Positions 1-43,799 of a stretch of 43,848 bases of DNA are shown here, piece by piece. The position numbers and the translations under genes were made by a program. This stretch comes from a virus (lineage: Duplodnaviria > Caudoviricetes), in IMG/VR virus record IMGVR_UViG_3300010361_000018, positions 1 through 43,848 of that record, one strand, 5' to 3'. The notes beneath the pieces were generated by a model that had not been told where the DNA came from, did not search any database, and worked only from the letters and a program-made list of their open reading frames with translations. Position 1 is the first letter of the stretch; every line of letters begins with the position of its first letter.

Positions 1-123
1 ATGTAGGACTGCGCGCCTACTGGCTGACTTGAAGTACCGCCCCCGCCGCCGCCTCCGAACAACCCCCCCGGCATCTACATTGCCCTCATCCAGCCCTGAC
101 CGTCGCTCTTGAAGCCCAAACGA
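1..123. repeat. Terminal direct repeat (identical to 43726..43848); circular assembly overlap
   Basis: The first 123 nt are identical to the last 123 nt; the ORF starting at 43799 also starts at 74. Confidence 0.97.
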
Positions 124-629
124 CGGAAGAAGGCGCCTGCGCTCACTCCGGGGGCAGTGGCAACGAACGTCAGATCAACACCTCTATCTTTAATCTCTTT
201 CAAAAGCGTTTTCCATATCCGGTAACCTGCCCATCCCTCACGGCCCCAAGGCGCCACAAAATGAGCAATCACCCAAGCAACTTTCTTCCCTCTGAACATC
301 AGATGATGATCAATTTGCACGAAAAATGCTGCCGTAATCCTGTCATCAAGCCGGTAAACCAGAACCACTAGCCGACCGATCTCGTTTTGCCAAAGCGCTC
401 TCGGCCAATCAGGAGAAAAATCCGGATAAGGCTTTGACATTGCTTGGCGATAGGACTCAGCAAAAGACGGCCAACTAACATCGGCCAGAAGCTCTTCCAA
501 CTTTTCCCAATCTAGGTAAGATGGACTGGCTAGCTCCGGTCCGGCTTGATGAGGTCCGGCGAGGCTGGCTTCGGTAAGGTGCGGTCTGGTTGGCCCAGAC
601 GAGGTAAGGTATGGTTCGGTGAGGCTCAC
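75..629 (-). CDS. GNAT-family N-acetyltransferase, virion-operon associated
   Basis: GNAT-like motifs HFVAPWGREGWAGYRIWK and AGAFFRRLGF. Likely GTG start at 629 overlaps the endolysin stop (GTGA), with GGAGG 7 nt upstream. The Pro-rich N-terminus is the antisense translation of the 523-627 array. Confidence 0.75.
   Translation of the reverse strand: MSLTEPYLTSSGPTRPHLTEASLAGPHQAGPELASPSYLDWEKLEELLADVSWPSFAESYRQAMSKPYPDFSPDWPRALWQNEIGRLVVLVYRLDDRITAAFFVQIDHHLMFRGKKVAWVIAHFVAPWGREGWAGYRIWKTLLKEIKDRGVDLTFVATAPGVSAGAFFRRLGFKSDGQGWMRAM
495..522 (+). promoter_or_regulatory. Candidate sigma70 promoter for the orphan pentamer array
   Basis: TTCCAA (495-500), 16 nt, TAAGAT (517-522), directly before the array. 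The -35 is weak. Confidence 0.4.
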
Positions 630-640
630 CCCTGAGCCTC
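523..640 (+). ncRNA. Orphan G(G)Y-NN pentamer array (array C), putative guide RNA of the Cas7-like protein, with 3' hairpin
   Basis: 21 consecutive 5-mers all start with G and 15 start with GGY (ggact ggcta gctcc ggtcc ggctt gatga ... ggttc ggtga ggctc). Ends in a perfect 8-bp hairpin GAGGCTCA-cccc-TGAGCCTC (621-640). Confidence 0.85.
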
Positions 641-1426
641 CCATGCCTCCAGCGCAGCCCGCGTCGCCGGGCCAGCAATGCCGTCAAGCATGCCTGAATA
701 CAGCCCCAGCGCCTTCAGGTAGCCCTGAAGCGTCTTGATGGCATCAGCCATTTGTGCTTCTGTAGGCCGGATGGATCGGCCCTGGGTATCAGGTACTCCT
801 GCCGGGACTTGGGGAGCTTGAGAGACAGCAGGCTCCCCCACCTTCCATCCCCCGAAATCATCCACCAGACTCTCGTCCGTATCGACGGACATCCCTTTCA
901 GAACGATCTGCGTCGTCGATCCCTGCTGGATGTGATGCCCCTCAAACCCGGCAGTCCCACGCCAGCCACGCGACTGAGCAAGCCATCCGTGCTCCACAAG
1001 CGCACGCACAGCATTCAGCACCGCGCCCGAGCCATAGACACCCACATTGAACTTTGGCGGCTGCAGCACCGCACGAACCGCTTCAAAGTACGGCAGCACA
1101 CCATTGGTGACCTGCTCCTCAGTGGCATCAAAATCCACGGCAAAGTAGATCGTCGAACCGTCCGGCTGCCCAACCTGCCAAGCCTGTACCAGAGCCGCCT
1201 GCGCATGCATCTTACCGTGCGCGTCATCAAACGTGTCGGGATTGTCCCCCGTCGATTCCCACACGGTAACGATCTGGAGACCATTATCCGAGAGCGCCTT
1301 GGCCTCCCCCGGCGTCAGATCCTTCGCCGCCGATCCACCGTAGTACCGGCAGGCGAAACCAAGTCCGAGATCCGGTAACCTTGAGGCATAAGCCGTCAGG
1401 CTAAAGGCGCAATCGATCCCCTTCAT
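626..1426 (-). CDS. Endolysin: DUF1906 (GH25-like TIM barrel) plus C-terminal peptidoglycan-binding domain
   Basis: GFACRYY...KDLTPGEA...IYFAVDFD...GVYGSG...WLAQS, then LQGYLKALGLYSGMLDGIAGPATRAAL (PG_binding_1). Confidence 0.9.
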   Translation of the reverse strand: MKGIDCAFSLTAYASRLPDLGLGFACRYYGGSAAKDLTPGEAKALSDNGLQIVTVWESTGDNPDTFDDAHGKMHAQAALVQAWQVGQPDGSTIYFAVDFDATEEQVTNGVLPYFEAVRAVLQPPKFNVGVYGSGAVLNAVRALVEHGWLAQSRGWRGTAGFEGHHIQQGSTTQIVLKGMSVDTDESLVDDFGGWKVGEPAVSQAPQVPAGVPDTQGRSIRPTEAQMADAIKTLQGYLKALGLYSGMLDGIAGPATRAALEAWEAQG

Positions 1427-20699: not shown

Positions 20700-21456
20700 A
20701 GACAGCCGCGATATGACGGGCGAGCGGCAGCGGTATCTTCGCAATCATCGCCGAGGCTTGCTTGCGAGTTAACGACTTACTGCCGGACGAGGTCAGCGAT
20801 TCAGGTGTACGCGTCCCATCGTTGAACCATCGCGTCCCATCGTTGAACCATCGCGTCCCATCGTTGAACCATCGCGTCCCATCCGGCGCCTTAATGACAG
20901 CCGGGCGATGAGGGACGCCCTTGTATCCTCCCCCAGCAGCACACCGCGTAAAATCCTGCCCCCGCTTCTCCCTATCGGACCAATTCATACCCGGCGCCTT
21001 CACACCTTTAAATGTAAAGGGCATCAGCGCCGGCACATCACCCCACAGATAATAGCTCCCGTAGTTCCATCGCGCGCGACCAACCCACTTCTGCGCTCCC
21101 CTGACGTTCTCCACCACCATCGGAATCTTCCGTCCTGCCGCCTCAGACGCCTCGCGCTGTATCCTGAAGCACGCCTCGAACAAGGTGTTGTCCGGCGGCG
21201 GCAATGCCTTCGCCCGCTTCCACGGCATCGCCCGGTAGCTGTACCCCTGACACGGCGGACTCGCCACGATCAGATCCACATCACGGAACTGTGAGCCGTG
21301 CAGCGTCAGCACATCCTGAATCACCATCGTTGTCGGATAGCGGTGCTCACCATACTCATGCCGCTCGATGTCGAAGCCGATGACATCCCACCCCTCAGCC
21401 AACAGCCCCTCGGCCCATCCCCCAAGCCCGCAGAACAGATCAATCGCCAGTGGCAT
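20689..21456 (-). CDS. DNA cytosine-5 methyltransferase
   Basis: Motif I DLFCGLGG, motif IV SPPCQ, motif VI ENV, C-terminal AKIPLPLA. Confidence 0.85.
   Translation of the reverse strand: MPLAIDLFCGLGGWAEGLLAEGWDVIGFDIERHEYGEHRYPTTMVIQDVLTLHGSQFRDVDLIVASPPCQGYSYRAMPWKRAKALPPPDNTLFEACFRIQREASEAAGRKIPMVVENVRGAQKWVGRARWNYGSYYLWGDVPALMPFTFKGVKAPGMNWSDREKRGQDFTRCAAGGGYKGVPHRPAVIKAPDGTRWFNDGTRWFNDGTRWFNDGTRTPESLTSSGSKSLTRKQASAMIAKIPLPLARHIAAVYAP
20810..20883. repeat. 21-bp tandem repeat, 3.5 copies (DGTRWFN) within the methyltransferase
   Basis: CGCGTCCCATCGTTGAACCAT at 20810, 20831 and 20852, plus a partial copy at 20873. Confidence 0.95.
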
Positions 21457-25153: not shown

Positions 25154-25447
25154 ATGACCATCGGCGGACACGAACTAGCACTCACCATCATCAATGATGG
25201 CAAAGGCTACCAGAGACGCAGAGAACTCGGCGAATATCTATATCACGGCAACCGTAGTGGCATCGCCGCACGCGCAGAAGCGCAAGAGTGGATCACGATC
25301 GCTCGCCAAGGTGCTCTACAATACGATAAGGAATTCGGCTCTGCTGGTGCCTCATCCTTCACAGTGCATGATATTCTCTGCGCCGCTGTCGAACTCGCAG
25401 AATACTACGAAGAGCATGCCAGAGACAGCGCAAATGTCGCTGCTTAA
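25154..25447 (+). CDS. Hypothetical protein
   Basis: AGGGAG RBS; clean ORF. Confidence 0.7.
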   Translation: MTIGGHELALTIINDGKGYQRRRELGEYLYHGNRSGIAARAEAQEWITIARQGALQYDKEFGSAGASSFTVHDILCAAVELAEYYEEHARDSANVAA

Positions 25448-34846: not shown

Positions 34847-35034
34847 TGACCCCTGAGCAACGGATGCTGGATGTCATTGCCGAGGCTATCGCTATGATCT
34901 GCCTGCGGCTCGCGATAGACGATCCGCTGAATAACGGCAGAGACATGCTTGAGCGTGCTCAGTTGACACGGCTGGAGATTGAAAAGTTCAAGCGCGACAT
35001 CGGCCAGCACGCGCCTCTCGTCAGGCTTCTATGA
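34843..35034 (+). CDS. Hypothetical protein
   Basis: Coupled ORF. Confidence 0.55.
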   Translation: MMTPEQRMLDVIAEAIAMICLRLAIDDPLNNGRDMLERAQLTRLEIEKFKRDIGQHAPLVRLL

Positions 35035-35525
35035 TAACTCCCCTCGGTTGGCTGGATACATGGTCTCTTGCCGCCTCCCTGATCCGCAAAGAGCGCCGGG
35101 AGGAGTTGAAGAAGGCCAATGGGCGTCTCGTGGTACGCGAGGGCAAATGGCAGCATCCCGGTACCGTCAAGGATGGTCCATGGGCAGCAATGCGCCAGGC
35201 TATCCAGAAGGCCAATCGCGCCATCCTTGAACGACAGGCCGATCTGGAGATCGCTGAAGTGGTTGTAGAGGAGTTATCCCCCGGTGACTCTTTCCCCTGG
35301 ACCCGCGGCAACGAGGGCGAGGTTTCGTGCTCGGTATTTGTTGTTACGAACCCGAAAGTCGTTATCCTGGTCGGTCAGGCTCGGCCACAAATCCCGTGTG
35401 TTCATATCCCGACAGGCGATGTGGTCGTTTGGGATTCGGGGTTATGGCATAGCAAGATCAACGGCGGTGAAACGACGAGCATTTCACTGAACATGAGATT
35501 GACTAAACGAATAGTCGAAATATGA
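35031..35525 (+). CDS. Cupin / Asp-Asn beta-hydroxylase-like protein, probably degenerate
   Basis: LSPGDSFPW...VVTNP...HIPTGDVVVWD...WHSKINGGET double-stranded beta-helix pattern; the first HxD metal ligands are missing. Confidence 0.55.
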   Translation: MITPLGWLDTWSLAASLIRKERREELKKANGRLVVREGKWQHPGTVKDGPWAAMRQAIQKANRAILERQADLEIAEVVVEELSPGDSFPWTRGNEGEVSCSVFVVTNPKVVILVGQARPQIPCVHIPTGDVVVWDSGLWHSKINGGETTSISLNMRLTKRIVEI

Positions 35526-35526
35526 T
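35499..35526 (+). promoter_or_regulatory. Sigma70 promoter for array A and the Cas7-like gene
   Basis: TTGACT (35499-504), 16 nt, TATGAT (35521-26); the array starts 9 nt later. Confidence 0.75.
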
Positions 35527-35534
35527 GATCCTGA

Positions 35535-35649
35535 GGCAGGCTAAGGTTCGATCGGGATTGGTAAGCAGCGGCCGGATGCGGCTTGCCAAGCCTTGGCAAG
35601 GCTCGGTTGGGTGAGGTAAGGTTTTGTTACCCCGGCAGCTACCGGGTAA
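35535..35649 (+). ncRNA. G(G)Y-NN pentamer array A (putative guide RNA) with 3' hairpin
   Basis: 18 consecutive 5-mers start with G (11 GGY) over 35535-35624, followed by the hairpin TTACCCCGG-cagcta-CCGGGTAA (35627-49). Confidence 0.85.
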
Positions 35650-35671
35650 GAACGCAACATCTTCCACAGAA

Positions 35672-35742
35672 TCCTCTGCGGCCGGTGTTGCGATATCGCA
35701 ACCCCTGATGCGTTCCGGGCGTAGCTGGCCGGCCGCAGAGGA
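35672..35742 (+). promoter_or_regulatory. Structured leader sequestering the RBS of the Cas7-like gene
   Basis: Perfect 14-bp inverted repeat TCCTCTGCGGCCGG / CCGGCCGCAGAGGA enclosing the 16-bp palindrome GTTGCGATATCGCAAC. Confidence 0.7.
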
Positions 35743-35748
35743 CTGAAC

Positions 35749-36393
35749 ATGGCAAGGAAATCTACAGCAGAGGTTATCAGTATCGGCGGCAGCGTCCCAA
35801 CATCGGGCGCCGACGAGATCATAGAATTTTCCGAACCCTACACCGTTGAAGTCGTCATCGAGGGTTCGGCCGACATTCTGTTCCATCGGTGGAACGCGGA
35901 AGCGGTAGACGAGAAGGCGAAAGCTGCCAAAGGCAGCAAAGCCAAAAAGACCGATGATGTTGAGAACTACGTCTATCGTGACGACGCTGGCTTCATCTGC
36001 GTCCCCGGAGAATACCTGCGCGGTGCTATCATCGGAGCAGCTAAGTTCAGGCAAGACCCGCGCTCGCCTCGCAAATCAGCGATGGACTTGTTCAAAGCTG
36101 CTGTTGTCAGCCTGACCCCGCTAGCCTCACTCGGGGTCAAGAAGTGGGATTATGAGGACCGTAGGCGGGTCGTTGTGCAGCGGGCTGGCATCAACCGGAC
36201 GCGGCCGGCAATGCGCGTTGGCTGGAAAGCCACCTTCCTCCTGATGGTGACTTTGCCGGAATACGTCAGCCCTCAGGTGCTGAACGAGGTTATCTCTATG
36301 GCCGGTCGTATCGGTGGCCTTGGAGATTTCCGGCCAACGTATGGACGCTTTAACGTGATTTCATATGGCGTGCTCGGCCGGGACGGGGCATGA
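35749..36393 (+). CDS. Solitary Cas7-like RAMP protein (Vipr-like RNA-guided effector)
   Basis: RAMP signature order: beta1 VEVVIEGSADILFH, YRDDAGFICVPGEYLRGAI, thumb RVVVQRAGINRTRP, W..TF, and G-rich loop AGRIGGLGDFRPTYGRFNV. No other cas genes in the genome. Confidence 0.85.
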   Translation: MARKSTAEVISIGGSVPTSGADEIIEFSEPYTVEVVIEGSADILFHRWNAEAVDEKAKAAKGSKAKKTDDVENYVYRDDAGFICVPGEYLRGAIIGAAKFRQDPRSPRKSAMDLFKAAVVSLTPLASLGVKKWDYEDRRRVVVQRAGINRTRPAMRVGWKATFLLMVTLPEYVSPQVLNEVISMAGRIGGLGDFRPTYGRFNVISYGVLGRDGA

Positions 36394-36501
36394 TTTGGAG
36401 AGGCGAGATGTGACGAGGCGAGGCTGGTAATGATGTGGTGCGCTGGGGACGGGTTTGGCACGACGCGGTATGCATCGGTGAGGTAAGGACGGGCAAGGCT
36501 T
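36367..36501 (+). ncRNA. G(G)Y-NN pentamer array B1 (putative guide RNA)
   Basis: 27 consecutive 5-mers start with G (13 GGY); the first five overlap the end of the RAMP CDS. Confidence 0.85.
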
Positions 36502-36503
36502 CC

Positions 36504-36563
36504 GGCATGATCAGGCTTGGAGGGGTCCGCCAGGTCTCGGTATGGTGGGGCAAGGTACGGTTT
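36504..36563 (+). ncRNA. G(G)Y-NN pentamer array B2 (putative guide RNA)
   Basis: After a 2-nt phase shift, 12 more G-initial 5-mers (8 GGY). Begins GGCATGAT, as B1 does at 36387, and ends at the PurD-like stop codon. Confidence 0.8.
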
Positions 36564-37886
36564 CTAGCTGTACCTCATCCCCATTGCGTAACCGCTCCGC
36601 TGCAACTGAGGCAACTGCCGAGCCAGACGAGAACCTATGTCCGGGCGATGGAAATCATCGGCCGGCATCTTAACGGAGTCCACACGTGAATAGGCGCGTT
36701 GCCTCGCTTCTTGCACAGTTTGCCCGCAGCCGCTCACGATGCAAACATAAGAGCCTGCTGTCGCGAGCCCGGTGGGTCGTTGCACACGACCGTTCTCAAT
36801 TGCAGGCACAGGCGCCGTCATCGCGTTGGCATAGTGTACGTGATCGGATCTACCCCGGTCCTGTATGGGAACCCCCACGACCTCCCCTGGACGCTCGTGC
36901 CCGTATGGAAAGGGCGGAAGCGCCATCACCACCCCCACCGCCACCTCATCCAGTCTACGATGTGCAGCCAATGGCCGCCCCTTTGCTACACTGGCTAGAA
37001 ACTCAATTGGATCGCCATCCCAAAGACTGAGCTCGATGTTGGTAGATGGCCACCCCAAGCGACAGGTCCACTCTAGGGGCCAAGGCTGGCCGTCCTCATC
37101 AATGATACAGTTAACGTCAATATTGGACCTGAACCCAGATGAAACGAGCATATCCTCGAACGGTGCGAGTACCTGTTTTGCCAACTTCGAATGTCGAGTT
37201 AGTCGCAGAACGGTTCCTAATTCGCCAGTATTTGGACCACCTCCTCCAGGAAACATCCGCTTCTCTTCCCAGTTCTCCTCCCACCCCGGCGCAAAGCCGT
37301 GATCCGTCACCCAAGCGCCGACCGCGAACTCGACGCCCTCAACGAGATCCTGCACGATGAACCCTTCAGGAAAGGTCTTGCCTTGACGCTTCCAACTCTC
37401 CAATCGCCAGATGACCCCCTCCGCGGTCTTGCCGACGAAACTGAGAGACTTGTCAGCCATATCCCCGCACGGTTTACAGGCGAAACCCTCACCACGCTTT
37501 GCAACGTAATCAATAGCCTCGTTAATGTTTTGACAGTGGCGATAGGGCGCGACAGGGATTCCCTTCCGGCGGAATGCTGCCATGCCTTGGAGGCGATTGA
37601 GTTCAAGATGAGTTATCTCTTGGGACCCACCAATGACCGGAACTCCCGCGGCTCGTAGCGCGTCAAGCTCGCGCATCCACCTCGTCGAGCCGCAGATGAT
37701 CAAGTCAGCCCAACGGCCTGAAGAACGCCAGTCCGACACACGCTCGACCAAGCCCTTGCCGGTAGGACTCTTGATCGGATCAAACGAGCCACTGAAGTAC
37801 TTAACGGAATGGCCATGCTGCTTGGCCCGGATGGCTAAGTCCAGAAGCCCATCAGAAGCACTCTCGATCAGCAGGATTTTTGCCAT
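36564..37886 (-). CDS. PurD-like (phosphoribosylamine-glycine ligase-like) ATP-grasp protein
   Basis: LELNR..G, ACKPCG, FIVQDLVEGVEF, EEKRMFPGGGGPNTGELG, IDVNCI, PLEWTCRLGWP and RPDIG motifs; divergent from cellular PurD. Confidence 0.85.
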   Translation of the reverse strand: MAKILLIESASDGLLDLAIRAKQHGHSVKYFSGSFDPIKSPTGKGLVERVSDWRSSGRWADLIICGSTRWMRELDALRAAGVPVIGGSQEITHLELNRLQGMAAFRRKGIPVAPYRHCQNINEAIDYVAKRGEGFACKPCGDMADKSLSFVGKTAEGVIWRLESWKRQGKTFPEGFIVQDLVEGVEFAVGAWVTDHGFAPGWEENWEEKRMFPGGGGPNTGELGTVLRLTRHSKLAKQVLAPFEDMLVSSGFRSNIDVNCIIDEDGQPWPLEWTCRLGWPSTNIELSLWDGDPIEFLASVAKGRPLAAHRRLDEVAVGVVMALPPFPYGHERPGEVVGVPIQDRGRSDHVHYANAMTAPVPAIENGRVQRPTGLATAGSYVCIVSGCGQTVQEARQRAYSRVDSVKMPADDFHRPDIGSRLARQLPQLQRSGYAMGMRYS

Positions 37887-42029: not shown

Positions 42030-43799
42030 TCACCACAGCGCGCGAGCGTAATCGACCATCTTGTACCCGCTCGGATGGTACAGAACCGCGTCCGGATTTA
42101 TCCGCTCAACCTCATCGGCCATCACGCCGATAGAGCCAAGGCCAGTGCCCTTGTATCGGTAGGCGTAGAGCGGCAATCCATTCATCGCCATCCCGATCGG
42201 CTCAACGTCAGTCTTCAGACGACGGTCGGAGAAGATTGAGAATATGCTAGGCAAGACGCTAGCAGCCACATCGCCGCCACCCCCGAAGTCACCGCCAAGA
42301 CCAGCCAACAATCCCATGTCGCTGGTCCCAGCATCACCAAGCCCCGCGAGCCCGCCCGTCAGCCCAAGCCCGGAACTGGTGAATGGATTGAGACCTACTT
42401 GCCCCAGCAAGCCGCCGCTCCCGCCGCCCAAACTATTTCCGAAAAGCGTGCTGGCAAGACCACCTAGGCCCTGACCGGAAAGCAGGTTGGTCGCGTTGTT
42501 AAGATACTGACCACTGATCGCACTACCCGTCGCCGACTGACCGAGCCCCAGATAATCCTCTAGGTTGTTCAGCGTCTGCTGCGGCACCGTGTACTGCTGG
42601 TTGCCGAGATTGATGCCCTGGCCCAACGTTGACAACTGGTTGCCGATATTCTGGTTAAAGACATTGTACGGGAGTTGCGAGTACTGAGAGCCCAAATTCA
42701 GCCCAGTACTCAGACCACCCGCGCCCTGCGTCAGCGCATTGCCAGCACCACCCAACAATCCCTGCGCCGTCGTCGCCCCGACATTGCCAGCTTGGTTCCG
42801 CGCGTTCAGCGCCTGAATGATGCTCTGTAGGTTGTTACCATACTGCGCCGACGGCAGCGACTGCGCACCTGCCATCAGACCAGTCGCGCCCTGCCCAAGC
42901 CCTAACCCTGTATTGAAGAGACTGCCTGCCGCGTTGGCTCCCAAGACGTTGGCTTGCAGACCGGACCCGATGAGACCGCCCAGCGTGTTTTGCACGCCCT
43001 GAGCCCCTTGCGCAGCTGCCAACTGCCGATTTTGCAAGTTGTTCTGCCAATCAATGTTGAAGTTCGAGAGCGTCTGATCCGTGACCCCGGCCCCATACGG
43101 CGTCCCCGACAGACCAGACGCCGCGTTGACCGCATTGGCTTGGTCCAACACCTGCTGTTGCGTCCGGTTATAGAGCGCCTGCTGTGGATCAAAGCCGGTG
43201 TTAATCAACGAGGACGCCAGACCCTGCAACGGCGATCCCAACGCCGTGATCTGTTGCCCAGCTTGCGCTCCCAGACCCGGAAGTTGTGCCGCTACTCCAC
43301 CTAGCTGAACGCCACCCTGCGCCGCCTGATCGGCTGCCGTCCGGCCCAAGCCGGCAGCCCAAGACGCCCCCTGCTGCGCCTGCTGCAGATAAGGGTTGGT
43401 CTCAGACAATGAGACGATGTTGGAATAATCCGGGGCAAAGCCACCAGCCAATGCCAACTGAAGATCGGATAGCGGCAGCGCCCCGCCGGCAACTAGATTC
43501 GTGCCCCCGGAGGTAATTCCCGGTACAGCGCCTTGTGCCAACGCATCGTAATTGACCGCAGCTGACTGTGCTCCCGGTGCATAGGGATTATTGTACCCCG
43601 CCGCAACCGATGACTGGACCTGTGGATAATAGGCCTGACCCGGTGTCGTCCCCGCTATCGAGGGGTCGTAAAACAGATGGGCAATGTTCTGAAAGCCCTG
43701 GTCCGCCGTGGCCTGAGCCTGCGGAATGTAGGACTGCGCGCCTACTGGCTGACTTGAAGTACCGCCCCCGCCGCCGCCTCCGAACAACCCCCCCGGCAT
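42030..43799 (-). CDS. Pilot / DNA ejection protein with C-terminal S74-like domain
   Basis: Gly-rich N-terminus, Q/G/A-rich body, C-terminal FSDRRLKTDVEPIG...GVMADEVE...GYKMVDY; follows the GNAT across the circular junction. Confidence 0.75.
   Translation of the reverse strand: MPGGLFGGGGGGGTSSQPVGAQSYIPQAQATADQGFQNIAHLFYDPSIAGTTPGQAYYPQVQSSVAAGYNNPYAPGAQSAAVNYDALAQGAVPGITSGGTNLVAGGALPLSDLQLALAGGFAPDYSNIVSLSETNPYLQQAQQGASWAAGLGRTAADQAAQGGVQLGGVAAQLPGLGAQAGQQITALGSPLQGLASSLINTGFDPQQALYNRTQQQVLDQANAVNAASGLSGTPYGAGVTDQTLSNFNIDWQNNLQNRQLAAAQGAQGVQNTLGGLIGSGLQANVLGANAAGSLFNTGLGLGQGATGLMAGAQSLPSAQYGNNLQSIIQALNARNQAGNVGATTAQGLLGGAGNALTQGAGGLSTGLNLGSQYSQLPYNVFNQNIGNQLSTLGQGINLGNQQYTVPQQTLNNLEDYLGLGQSATGSAISGQYLNNATNLLSGQGLGGLASTLFGNSLGGGSGGLLGQVGLNPFTSSGLGLTGGLAGLGDAGTSDMGLLAGLGGDFGGGGDVAASVLPSIFSIFSDRRLKTDVEPIGMAMNGLPLYAYRYKGTGLGSIGVMADEVERINPDAVLYHPSGYKMVDYARALW

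Follow-up and report, generated by a model that had tools for sequence, protein, structure and literature searches.

What is a guide array doing antisense inside the start of a phage gene, and at which DNA is it aimed? VIPR guides consist of GGY/NN repeats whose NN pairs read DNA while skipping one base (10.64898/2026.04.26.720920). An array of this pattern lies where the endolysin gene of a soil phage meets a gene for a GNAT-family acetyltransferase. The window, that is, the whole stretch of DNA analyzed, comprises 43,848 nt and represents a complete circle of 43,725 nt with a 123-nt terminal repeat. Its late genes on the minus strand run across the circle join, from the endolysin through GNAT and the gene at 42030-43799 to further genes.

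Table 1. Coordinates of the features discussed (positions in the window)
Feature	Position	Strand	Remarks
Endolysin	626..1426	-	Stop (628-626) overlaps the GNAT start as GTGA
GNAT-family acetyltransferase	75..629	-	PHROG 1249; weak Pfam PF00583; 184 aa from GTG629
Gene directly downstream of GNAT, across the circle join	42030..43799	-	
-35-like TTCCAA, weak	495..500	+	TTCCAA-16-TAAGAT matches 7/12 of the promoter consensus
-10-like TAAGAT	517..522	+	5 nt ahead of the first GGY unit
Degenerate 5' unit	523..527	+	Extends the array to exactly 105 nt
Distal GGY/NN pentamer array, vrRNA pattern	528..627	+	20 units, 15/20 with perfect GGY
3' tail of the distal array	607..648	+	Perfect 8-bp hairpin 621-640 within a 16-bp bulged stem
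N-terminal extension antisense to the array	522..629	-	36 codons; predicted disordered; missing in L002
Shine-Dalgarno GGAGG	637..641	-	7 nt ahead of GTG629; paired in the mRNA-side hairpin
Own near-target of the distal guide	381..428	-	GNAT codons 73-88; skipped base is the wobble base
Array A, upstream of vipr	35535..35624	+	Sigma70-type promoter 35499-35526 ahead
Vipr protein, Cas7-like RAMP	35749..36393	+	214 aa; profile match 36pp_D, E 6.2e-9
Array B, downstream of vipr	36387..36501	+	
Array C	36504..36563	+	Tail hairpin and stop of the convergent gene 36564-37886 overlap

A vrRNA-type array at the endolysin-GNAT junction

A scan of the genome for a 5-periodic GGY pattern recovered four arrays only, all on the plus strand: the distal array at the junction (about 528-627) and arrays A, B and C. 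Elsewhere the top 20-unit score was 6, and the maximum among 30 base-shuffled genomes was 8. Five of the 20 units of the distal array have a degenerate GGY. Once the degenerate 5' unit is counted, the length of 105 nt given in an earlier sequence-only reading of this DNA is reproduced. Units 1-16 (528-607) form the guide part and units 17-20 pair within the tail stem, in keeping with the about 9-16 GGY/NN units of VIPR guides.

The tail stem at 607-648 is more stable than its shuffled counterparts (z -4.85; 0/200 shuffles). Its 5' arms are the last four array units, and its 3' arms are antisense endolysin codons. The perfect terminal hairpin was found where it had been described, over the endolysin stop and the ribosome-binding site and start of GNAT; it spans the stop codon, GTG 629-627 and most of the Shine-Dalgarno site (641-637). 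No U-tract follows the hairpin, which therefore counts as a tail rather than as a scored terminator. The structured 3' tail of VIPR guides is thus present here as a hairpin, not as a pseudoknot of the SUSP1 type. An Rfam search of the whole window gave 0 matches.

The -10-like hexamer was indeed found directly upstream of the array; the promoter that it would form is weak (7/12, versus 10/12 for that of array A), and a consensus promoter scan of 300-900 found 0 promoters. Among sampled loci, a TAnnnT hexamer stood just ahead of the first array in 26/166, compared to 4/166 control positions, and this hexamer occurs at 5% of positions in the phage genome. We consider the -10 element of the distal array a plausible but modest candidate.

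The phage encodes its own Vipr

The RAMP protein with which the guide had been proposed to act in trans was identified as Vipr. A profile built from the ORF at 35749-36393 and 39 homologues matched 36pp_D, the SUSP1 Vipr (E 6.2e-9), as the sole match up to E 10. The top structural matches of the predicted model (pLDDT 82) in a VIA search were Cas7/Cas5-type RAMPs (Z 10.9, rmsd 3.2, 155 aligned). Residues D193, R195 and R152 are invariant across 40 homologues and align with D177, R179 and R138 of SUSP1. An Atlas search with Vipr named no family. The ORF upstream of vipr (35031-35525) had no Pfam or PHROG match, and no vap gene was recognized.

Around the circle, the distal array lies 7,689 nt from the nearest Vipr-flanking array, as the earlier estimate of about 7.7 kb had it. 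The label "orphan" given to it does not hold under the published definition, by which a solo vrRNA has no Vipr on its contig or lies >20 kb from it (Lopez et al.), since 7,859 nt of the circle separate Vipr from the array.

Arrays A, B and C gave no match in their own genome above shuffles by local score. Array B decodes in an open frame, and it borders array C in a different register, as in staggered arrays; its decoded frame presumably resembles excisionase or HTH C-termini. Array C decodes to a Walker-A-like peptide that differs from the phage's own terminase; we take this peptide to be terminase-like. The gene over whose stop the array C hairpin lies, at the end of the late operon, encodes GARS-like ATP-grasp domains, and this overlap parallels that of the distal guide with the endolysin stop. 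In the vipr leader (35650-35748), the ribosome site is enclosed in a long predicted helix (z -4.81; 0/200 shuffles). A C-5 methylase ORF holds a perfect 21-nt tandem repeat of 3.5 copies at 20810-20883.

The distal guide decodes to the neighboring GNAT gene

Decoded with a 1-nt skip, units 1-16 matched the phage's own GNAT allele at 24/32 read bases. In a genome-wide search with units 1-17, a one-base skip gave 26/34 at 428-378 on the minus strand, in GNAT codon phase, compared to at most 23/34 for 500 unit shuffles and at most 21 for skips 0 and 2. Only skip 1 yielded an outlier among the three skips compared; the code and its wobble skip are thus those of VIPR. A boundary-free local score gave 18 in the phage's own genome versus at most 16 in 200 shuffles. 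When all 20 units were scored at full length, the own match was 26/40 and was equalled by 4/150 shuffles; this score is weaker because the tail units do not match, and a clean self-match signal requires either dropping the tail units or using the local score. The GNAT site is the best site in the phage genome for the distal guide. The guide therefore does stand next to its own target site, as had been proposed: the decoded target is the homologous GNAT site, 99 nt from the array.

An array-less relative matches the guide better

The relative L002 has the same order of endolysin, GNAT and next gene, and it has neither the array nor the N-terminal extension, as predicted for relatives without the array, which were expected to lack some 35 residues. 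Its GNAT is 149 aa long and 72% identical, with a start within an 11-nt overlap. The two phages differ at the junction by a net 112 nt, and the GNAT start stands in another frame relative to the endolysin; the notion that the insertion preserved the frame applies to a hypothetical ancestor and does not apply with respect to L002. By parsimony, insertion of the array would be preferred to loss, with breakpoints that two alleles cannot fix exactly.

The homologous site of L002 (355-402) matched units 1-16 at 27/32 (5 mismatches), with a local score of 22 versus at most 18 in 2,000 shuffles. Over the tail-proximal units 10-16, L002 matched at 14/14 and the own allele at 11/14. The own match (75%) and that of L002 (84%) fall below and above the 80% cut used for natural targets in the published VIPR work. 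Cryo-EM pairing intermediates are described as resolving from the 3' tail end (10.64898/2026.04.26.720927), and the own mismatches, being tail-proximal, hence fall where pairing is reported to begin. We infer that these mismatches may render the own allele immune. The available texts of the VIPR preprints give no data on mismatch tolerance.

Units 3, 5 and 9 are mismatched by both the own allele and L002. What the guide specifies at units 3 and 5 is the residue most frequent among 26 distant homologues (P in 14/26, D in 15/26). This suggests that the true target is a third allele, or an ancestral one, and that the guide may have been written against a real allele of this kind. The own N87 differs from the E of the guide, of L002 and of the family, in which E is commonest (11/26 homologues). 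A perfect target was sought in viral contigs by exact-pattern scans with two segments of the decoded guide, with 0 matches. GNAT relatives were found neither in the viral contigs searched nor among GenBank phages, and only three GNAT alleles above 40% identity are known. One sequencing run, X2, contains pieces identical to L002 as well as window-like pieces, so phages of both types can share one sample; the contigs of X2 do not cover positions 501-696 of the window. A further run, X1, possibly gave rise to the window itself and does not count as independent.

The divergence from L002 changes in steps along the region. Third-position identity is 0.51-0.72 in the endolysin end and most of GNAT, 0.94 in the last 18 GNAT codons and 0.74-0.84 in the next gene, whose product is 98% identical to its L002 counterpart over 347 aa.

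GNAT is probably translated through the array

The GNAT ORF at its greatest length (75-644, minus strand) is open across the array and encodes the peptide that the sequence-only reading had quoted for the extension. An open frame as proof of dual coding was rejected, since open antisense frames are common: resampling gave a chance of 0.42-0.58 for an open frame over the array, and antisense frames were open in 214/312 cases among natural arrays of at least 17 units.

The only in-frame starts are ATG644, GTG629 and TTG500, with Shine-Dalgarno energies of -2.1, -10.2 and -3.3 kcal/mol, respectively. The GTGA overlap form occurs twice more in the late region. The GNAT core fold begins at 521; in the predicted structure, residues 42-47 form strand 1 (pLDDT ~94), whereas residues 1-40 reach ~52. 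The predicted mRNA fold places both the Shine-Dalgarno site and the UG of GUG629 in base pairs, and initiation at GTG629 would therefore depend on coupling. Antisense-array motifs gave 0-1 hits across 27 homologues versus 4 in the phage GNAT, and none of the 27 shows the full signature; conservation of the extension as protein, which would have refuted the sequence-only reading, is thus not seen among these homologues. We consider translation through the array from GTG629 fairly probable, and dual coding of the array and the GNAT leader likely, if not proven.

The competing view, on this point alone, leaves the array untranslated and takes GNAT either to be decaying or to have its start at TTG500 (141 aa). 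One source calls the 141-aa form, and both the frequency of open antisense frames (214/312) and the pairing of the GTG629 site would fit. The Shine-Dalgarno sequence of TTG500 is, however, weak, and a start there would remove residues 42-48 with the first strand, including a glutamate kept in 20/26 homologues, at a cost of 6.6 bits against the family profile; the ORF is, moreover, intact, contrary to decay. An untranslated array is thus unlikely, though a serious contender. That the region is a low-complexity protein extension only, with incidental DNA periodicity, is extremely improbable: Pro/Ala-rich leaders do occur in 4/26 distant homologues, but each of them has 0 antisense-array motif hits versus 4 here, a period of 5 is impossible from codons, and the variable array bases decode to the neighboring gene.

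Neighboring near-targets are found for a small minority of viral arrays

Two scans yielded 137 array-bearing viral stretches from 3 of the 64 collection parts and 132 from 12, out of an estimated 2,900 such stretches. Identical arrays were excluded, as were arrays with a score <8, fewer than 6 distinct NN or one NN at >40%, and arrays of >30 units or with <150 free flanking bases. The filters left 471 arrays from 183 loci, in which relatives were counted without dereplication. For 11/471 arrays, on 11 different contigs, a near-target lay no more than 600 nt away at p≤0.005, with 2.4 expected; the wrong-skip controls gave 2 (skip 0) and 1 (skip 2). Thirteen arrays passed 0.01 in both the shuffle control and the cross-locus control. 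A looser first pass had given 8/354, and in the genome_contigs sample 0/34 arrays reached p≤0.005. Guides sharing the layout with a neighboring target would therefore be a small minority, about 2%. The target distance was 13-126 nt in several matches.

Of the 19 top candidates, tallied by hand, 11 had a PHROG-named gene as target, and in 9 of the 11 the skip falls on the wobble base; these nine targets are a resolvase, an integrase, DnaB, a major head protein, a clamp loader, a glycosyltransferase, a Hoc-like protein, an exonuclease and one vipr-like gene. In two vipr-like target genes the skip does not fall on the wobble base. An automated wobble test on the longest stop-free frame (6/12 versus 138/403) is uninformative, since shadow frames are often the longest. 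Near-targets were found at 9/242 for loci without Vipr versus 2/229 for loci with Vipr, a difference that is not significant (Fisher p 0.063) and that includes loci classed as without Vipr that do have vipr nearby in their record.

Array-less relatives fit the guide better in 3/4 cases tested, with unit ranges picked after viewing the matches. Units 1-10 of the L059 guide matched the own gene at 17/20, compared to 20/20 for the array-less L397 and 18/20 for L398. Units 5-14 of the L069 guide matched the own gene at 17/20, compared to 18-20/20 in 75/79 array-less distant relatives; the target is a conserved motif in genes <50% identical. Contrary to the model, L211 matched its own guide at 21/28, and its array-less relatives matched this guide at 18/28.

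Several layouts deserve separate mention. In L059 (526-1176), guide and vipr directly follow the clamp-loader gene, and L397 has no array there. L069, a 105-kb phage (93% complete) in which no Vipr was found, carries two guides (569-638 and 1244-1318), each directly behind the gene that it nearly matches (UvsX-like and RusA-like). In L033 (1501-1636), the guide is convergent with the major head gene, from which a hairpin separates it, and nearly matches its last codons 24 nt off. In L127 (array 301-370, reversed locus), the upstream ORF and the array overlap in sense by a few codons, and the guide nearly matches the final codons of this ORF, which makes the guide a second possible dual-coded one.

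What the distal guide may do

We favor, with a probability of about 0.68, the reading that a transcribed, Vipr-loaded guide silences the GNAT of sibling phages and that the phage's own copy is spared by mismatches. The distal guide would likely be transcribed on the plus strand from its weak promoter, and Vipr from the phage's own gene, 7.9 kb off, would likely load it in trans. The Vipr-guide complex would then act as a roadblock at the GNAT of siblings, where expression of the downstream late genes would also drop. A recombinant with the guide but without the mismatched allele would silence itself, so the guide is likely kept beside this allele. GNAT itself would probably stay intact through translational coupling from GTG629, and the leader encoded antisense to the array would be disordered, tolerated and without a function of its own. 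A point against sibling silencing is that GNAT would act in trans, so that in a coinfected cell the loss could be complemented.

An improbable alternative is homing without a nuclease: bound Vipr would block replication or provoke a break at the sibling GNAT allele, and the genome with the guide, serving as the repair template, would pass on the mismatched allele together with the guide 100 nt away. The short distance to the target, here and in the survey, would suit such a process, and the endolysin end and most of GNAT have diverged from L002 beyond their flank, as would a block inherited together; this step is explained equally well, however, by ordinary phage mosaicism or faster gene evolution. 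Free-standing T4 endonucleases are described as cutting the neighboring genes of relatives (PMC2988022), but no nuclease gene adjoins the guide or vipr in the Pfam and PHROG annotation of the window, the HNH genes at 25194 and 30408 are unlinked to either, and SUSP1 VIPR was shown to be a repressor. The homing-endonuclease logic of the sequence-only reading is therefore retained in part. The target does lie in the neighboring gene of an element-free relative (L002, 27/32), as for free-standing homing elements, but the element is a 112-nt insert and encodes no site-specific nuclease. Since true homing needs a break and gene conversion, the comparison describes the layout only.

Less probable again is a local origin, in which a guide-making process used the ancestral GNAT of this phage as its source and the allele later drifted or escaped; proximity would then reflect origin and not selection for linkage. 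Three observations agree with such a relic: the guide reads the family-consensus residue at two positions at which neither living allele does, GGY is degenerate in 5/20 units, and L211 fits itself better than its relatives do. The perfect match of the seven tail-proximal units to the living L002, the 20/20 fit of L397 to the L059 guide and the lack of self-matches above shuffles for arrays A-C all argue against it. Self-tuning, by which Vipr, at a 75% match, would lower expression of GNAT and the downstream late genes in the phage itself, is very improbable: the own site is the best in the genome, but the relative fits better, the own mismatches sit at the tail-proximal end, and the published clades, in the portion of text available, hold no self-match above 80%.

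Returning to sibling silencing, the guide resembles the VIPR of SUSP1 and of the P. fulva prophage (10.64898/2026.04.26.720920, 10.64898/2026.04.26.720927) in its Vipr homologue, GGY/NN repeats, structured 3' tail, 1-nt-skip code with wobble skip and target in a related phage. Unlike those systems as far as their available text describes them, it lies 7.9 kb from vipr, within a coding region rather than an intergenic one, its tail is a hairpin made partly of antisense endolysin codons without a pseudoknot, its decoded target is a homologue of its host gene, and no vap gene was recognized. Solo or orphan vrRNAs of F5 satellites and vipr-null phages (10.64898/2026.10.15.759431) are likewise stand-alone guides that match self less than rivals, and they are used in trans, as the present guide would be. 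The published solo guides, in the text available, reside in elements without Vipr and are aimed at REP decoys, vipr, other vrRNAs and satellites, whereas Vipr is encoded by this phage itself and the likely target is a sibling allele of an adjacent structural-region gene.

The T4 seg and mob free-standing homing endonucleases, known for intronless homing and marker exclusion (PMC2988022), also sit beside the gene targeted in relatives and overlap neighboring stop and start signals; here, by contrast, specificity resides in RNA, the effector is encoded elsewhere, and cleavage or gene conversion would be hypothetical. Prophage TldR-gRNA with the adjacent fliCP (PMC13418256) likewise links an RNA-guided repressor to its own version of the silenced gene, but has a TnpB-derived protein, contiguous pairing and a host flagellin target, with protein, guide and replacement gene lying together. 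The word "homing" is absent from the main text of the three VIPR preprints as available. We found no paper on guides beside their own target allele; most subscription journals lay outside the scope of this search, and the supplements of the VIPR preprints could hold cases.

A wider generalization, which we regard as doubtful, is that VIPR guides are mobile, allele-specific drive elements that spread with an immune allele by nuclease-free homing and borrow Vipr in trans. A 100-nt RNA gene would insert beside or inside the gene whose sibling alleles it attacks. The present guide would be an extreme form, with host-gene codons as its tail and a gene forced to translate the guide as its leader.

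We conclude that the evidence for the distal guide as a genuine variant of VIPR is good; it is embedded in antisense at the 5' end of GNAT and is likely aimed at the alleles of this gene in sibling phages. The targets in print for VIPR comprise satellites, prophages, decoy repeats and rival VIPR loci. That a guide stands next to a mismatched version of its target points to a different use, in which sibling phages are told apart and attack and protection are linked genetically. Pairs of guide and mismatched allele are natural experiments on the number and identity of mismatches that VIPR tolerates, and they are also informative on how new guides arise and move.
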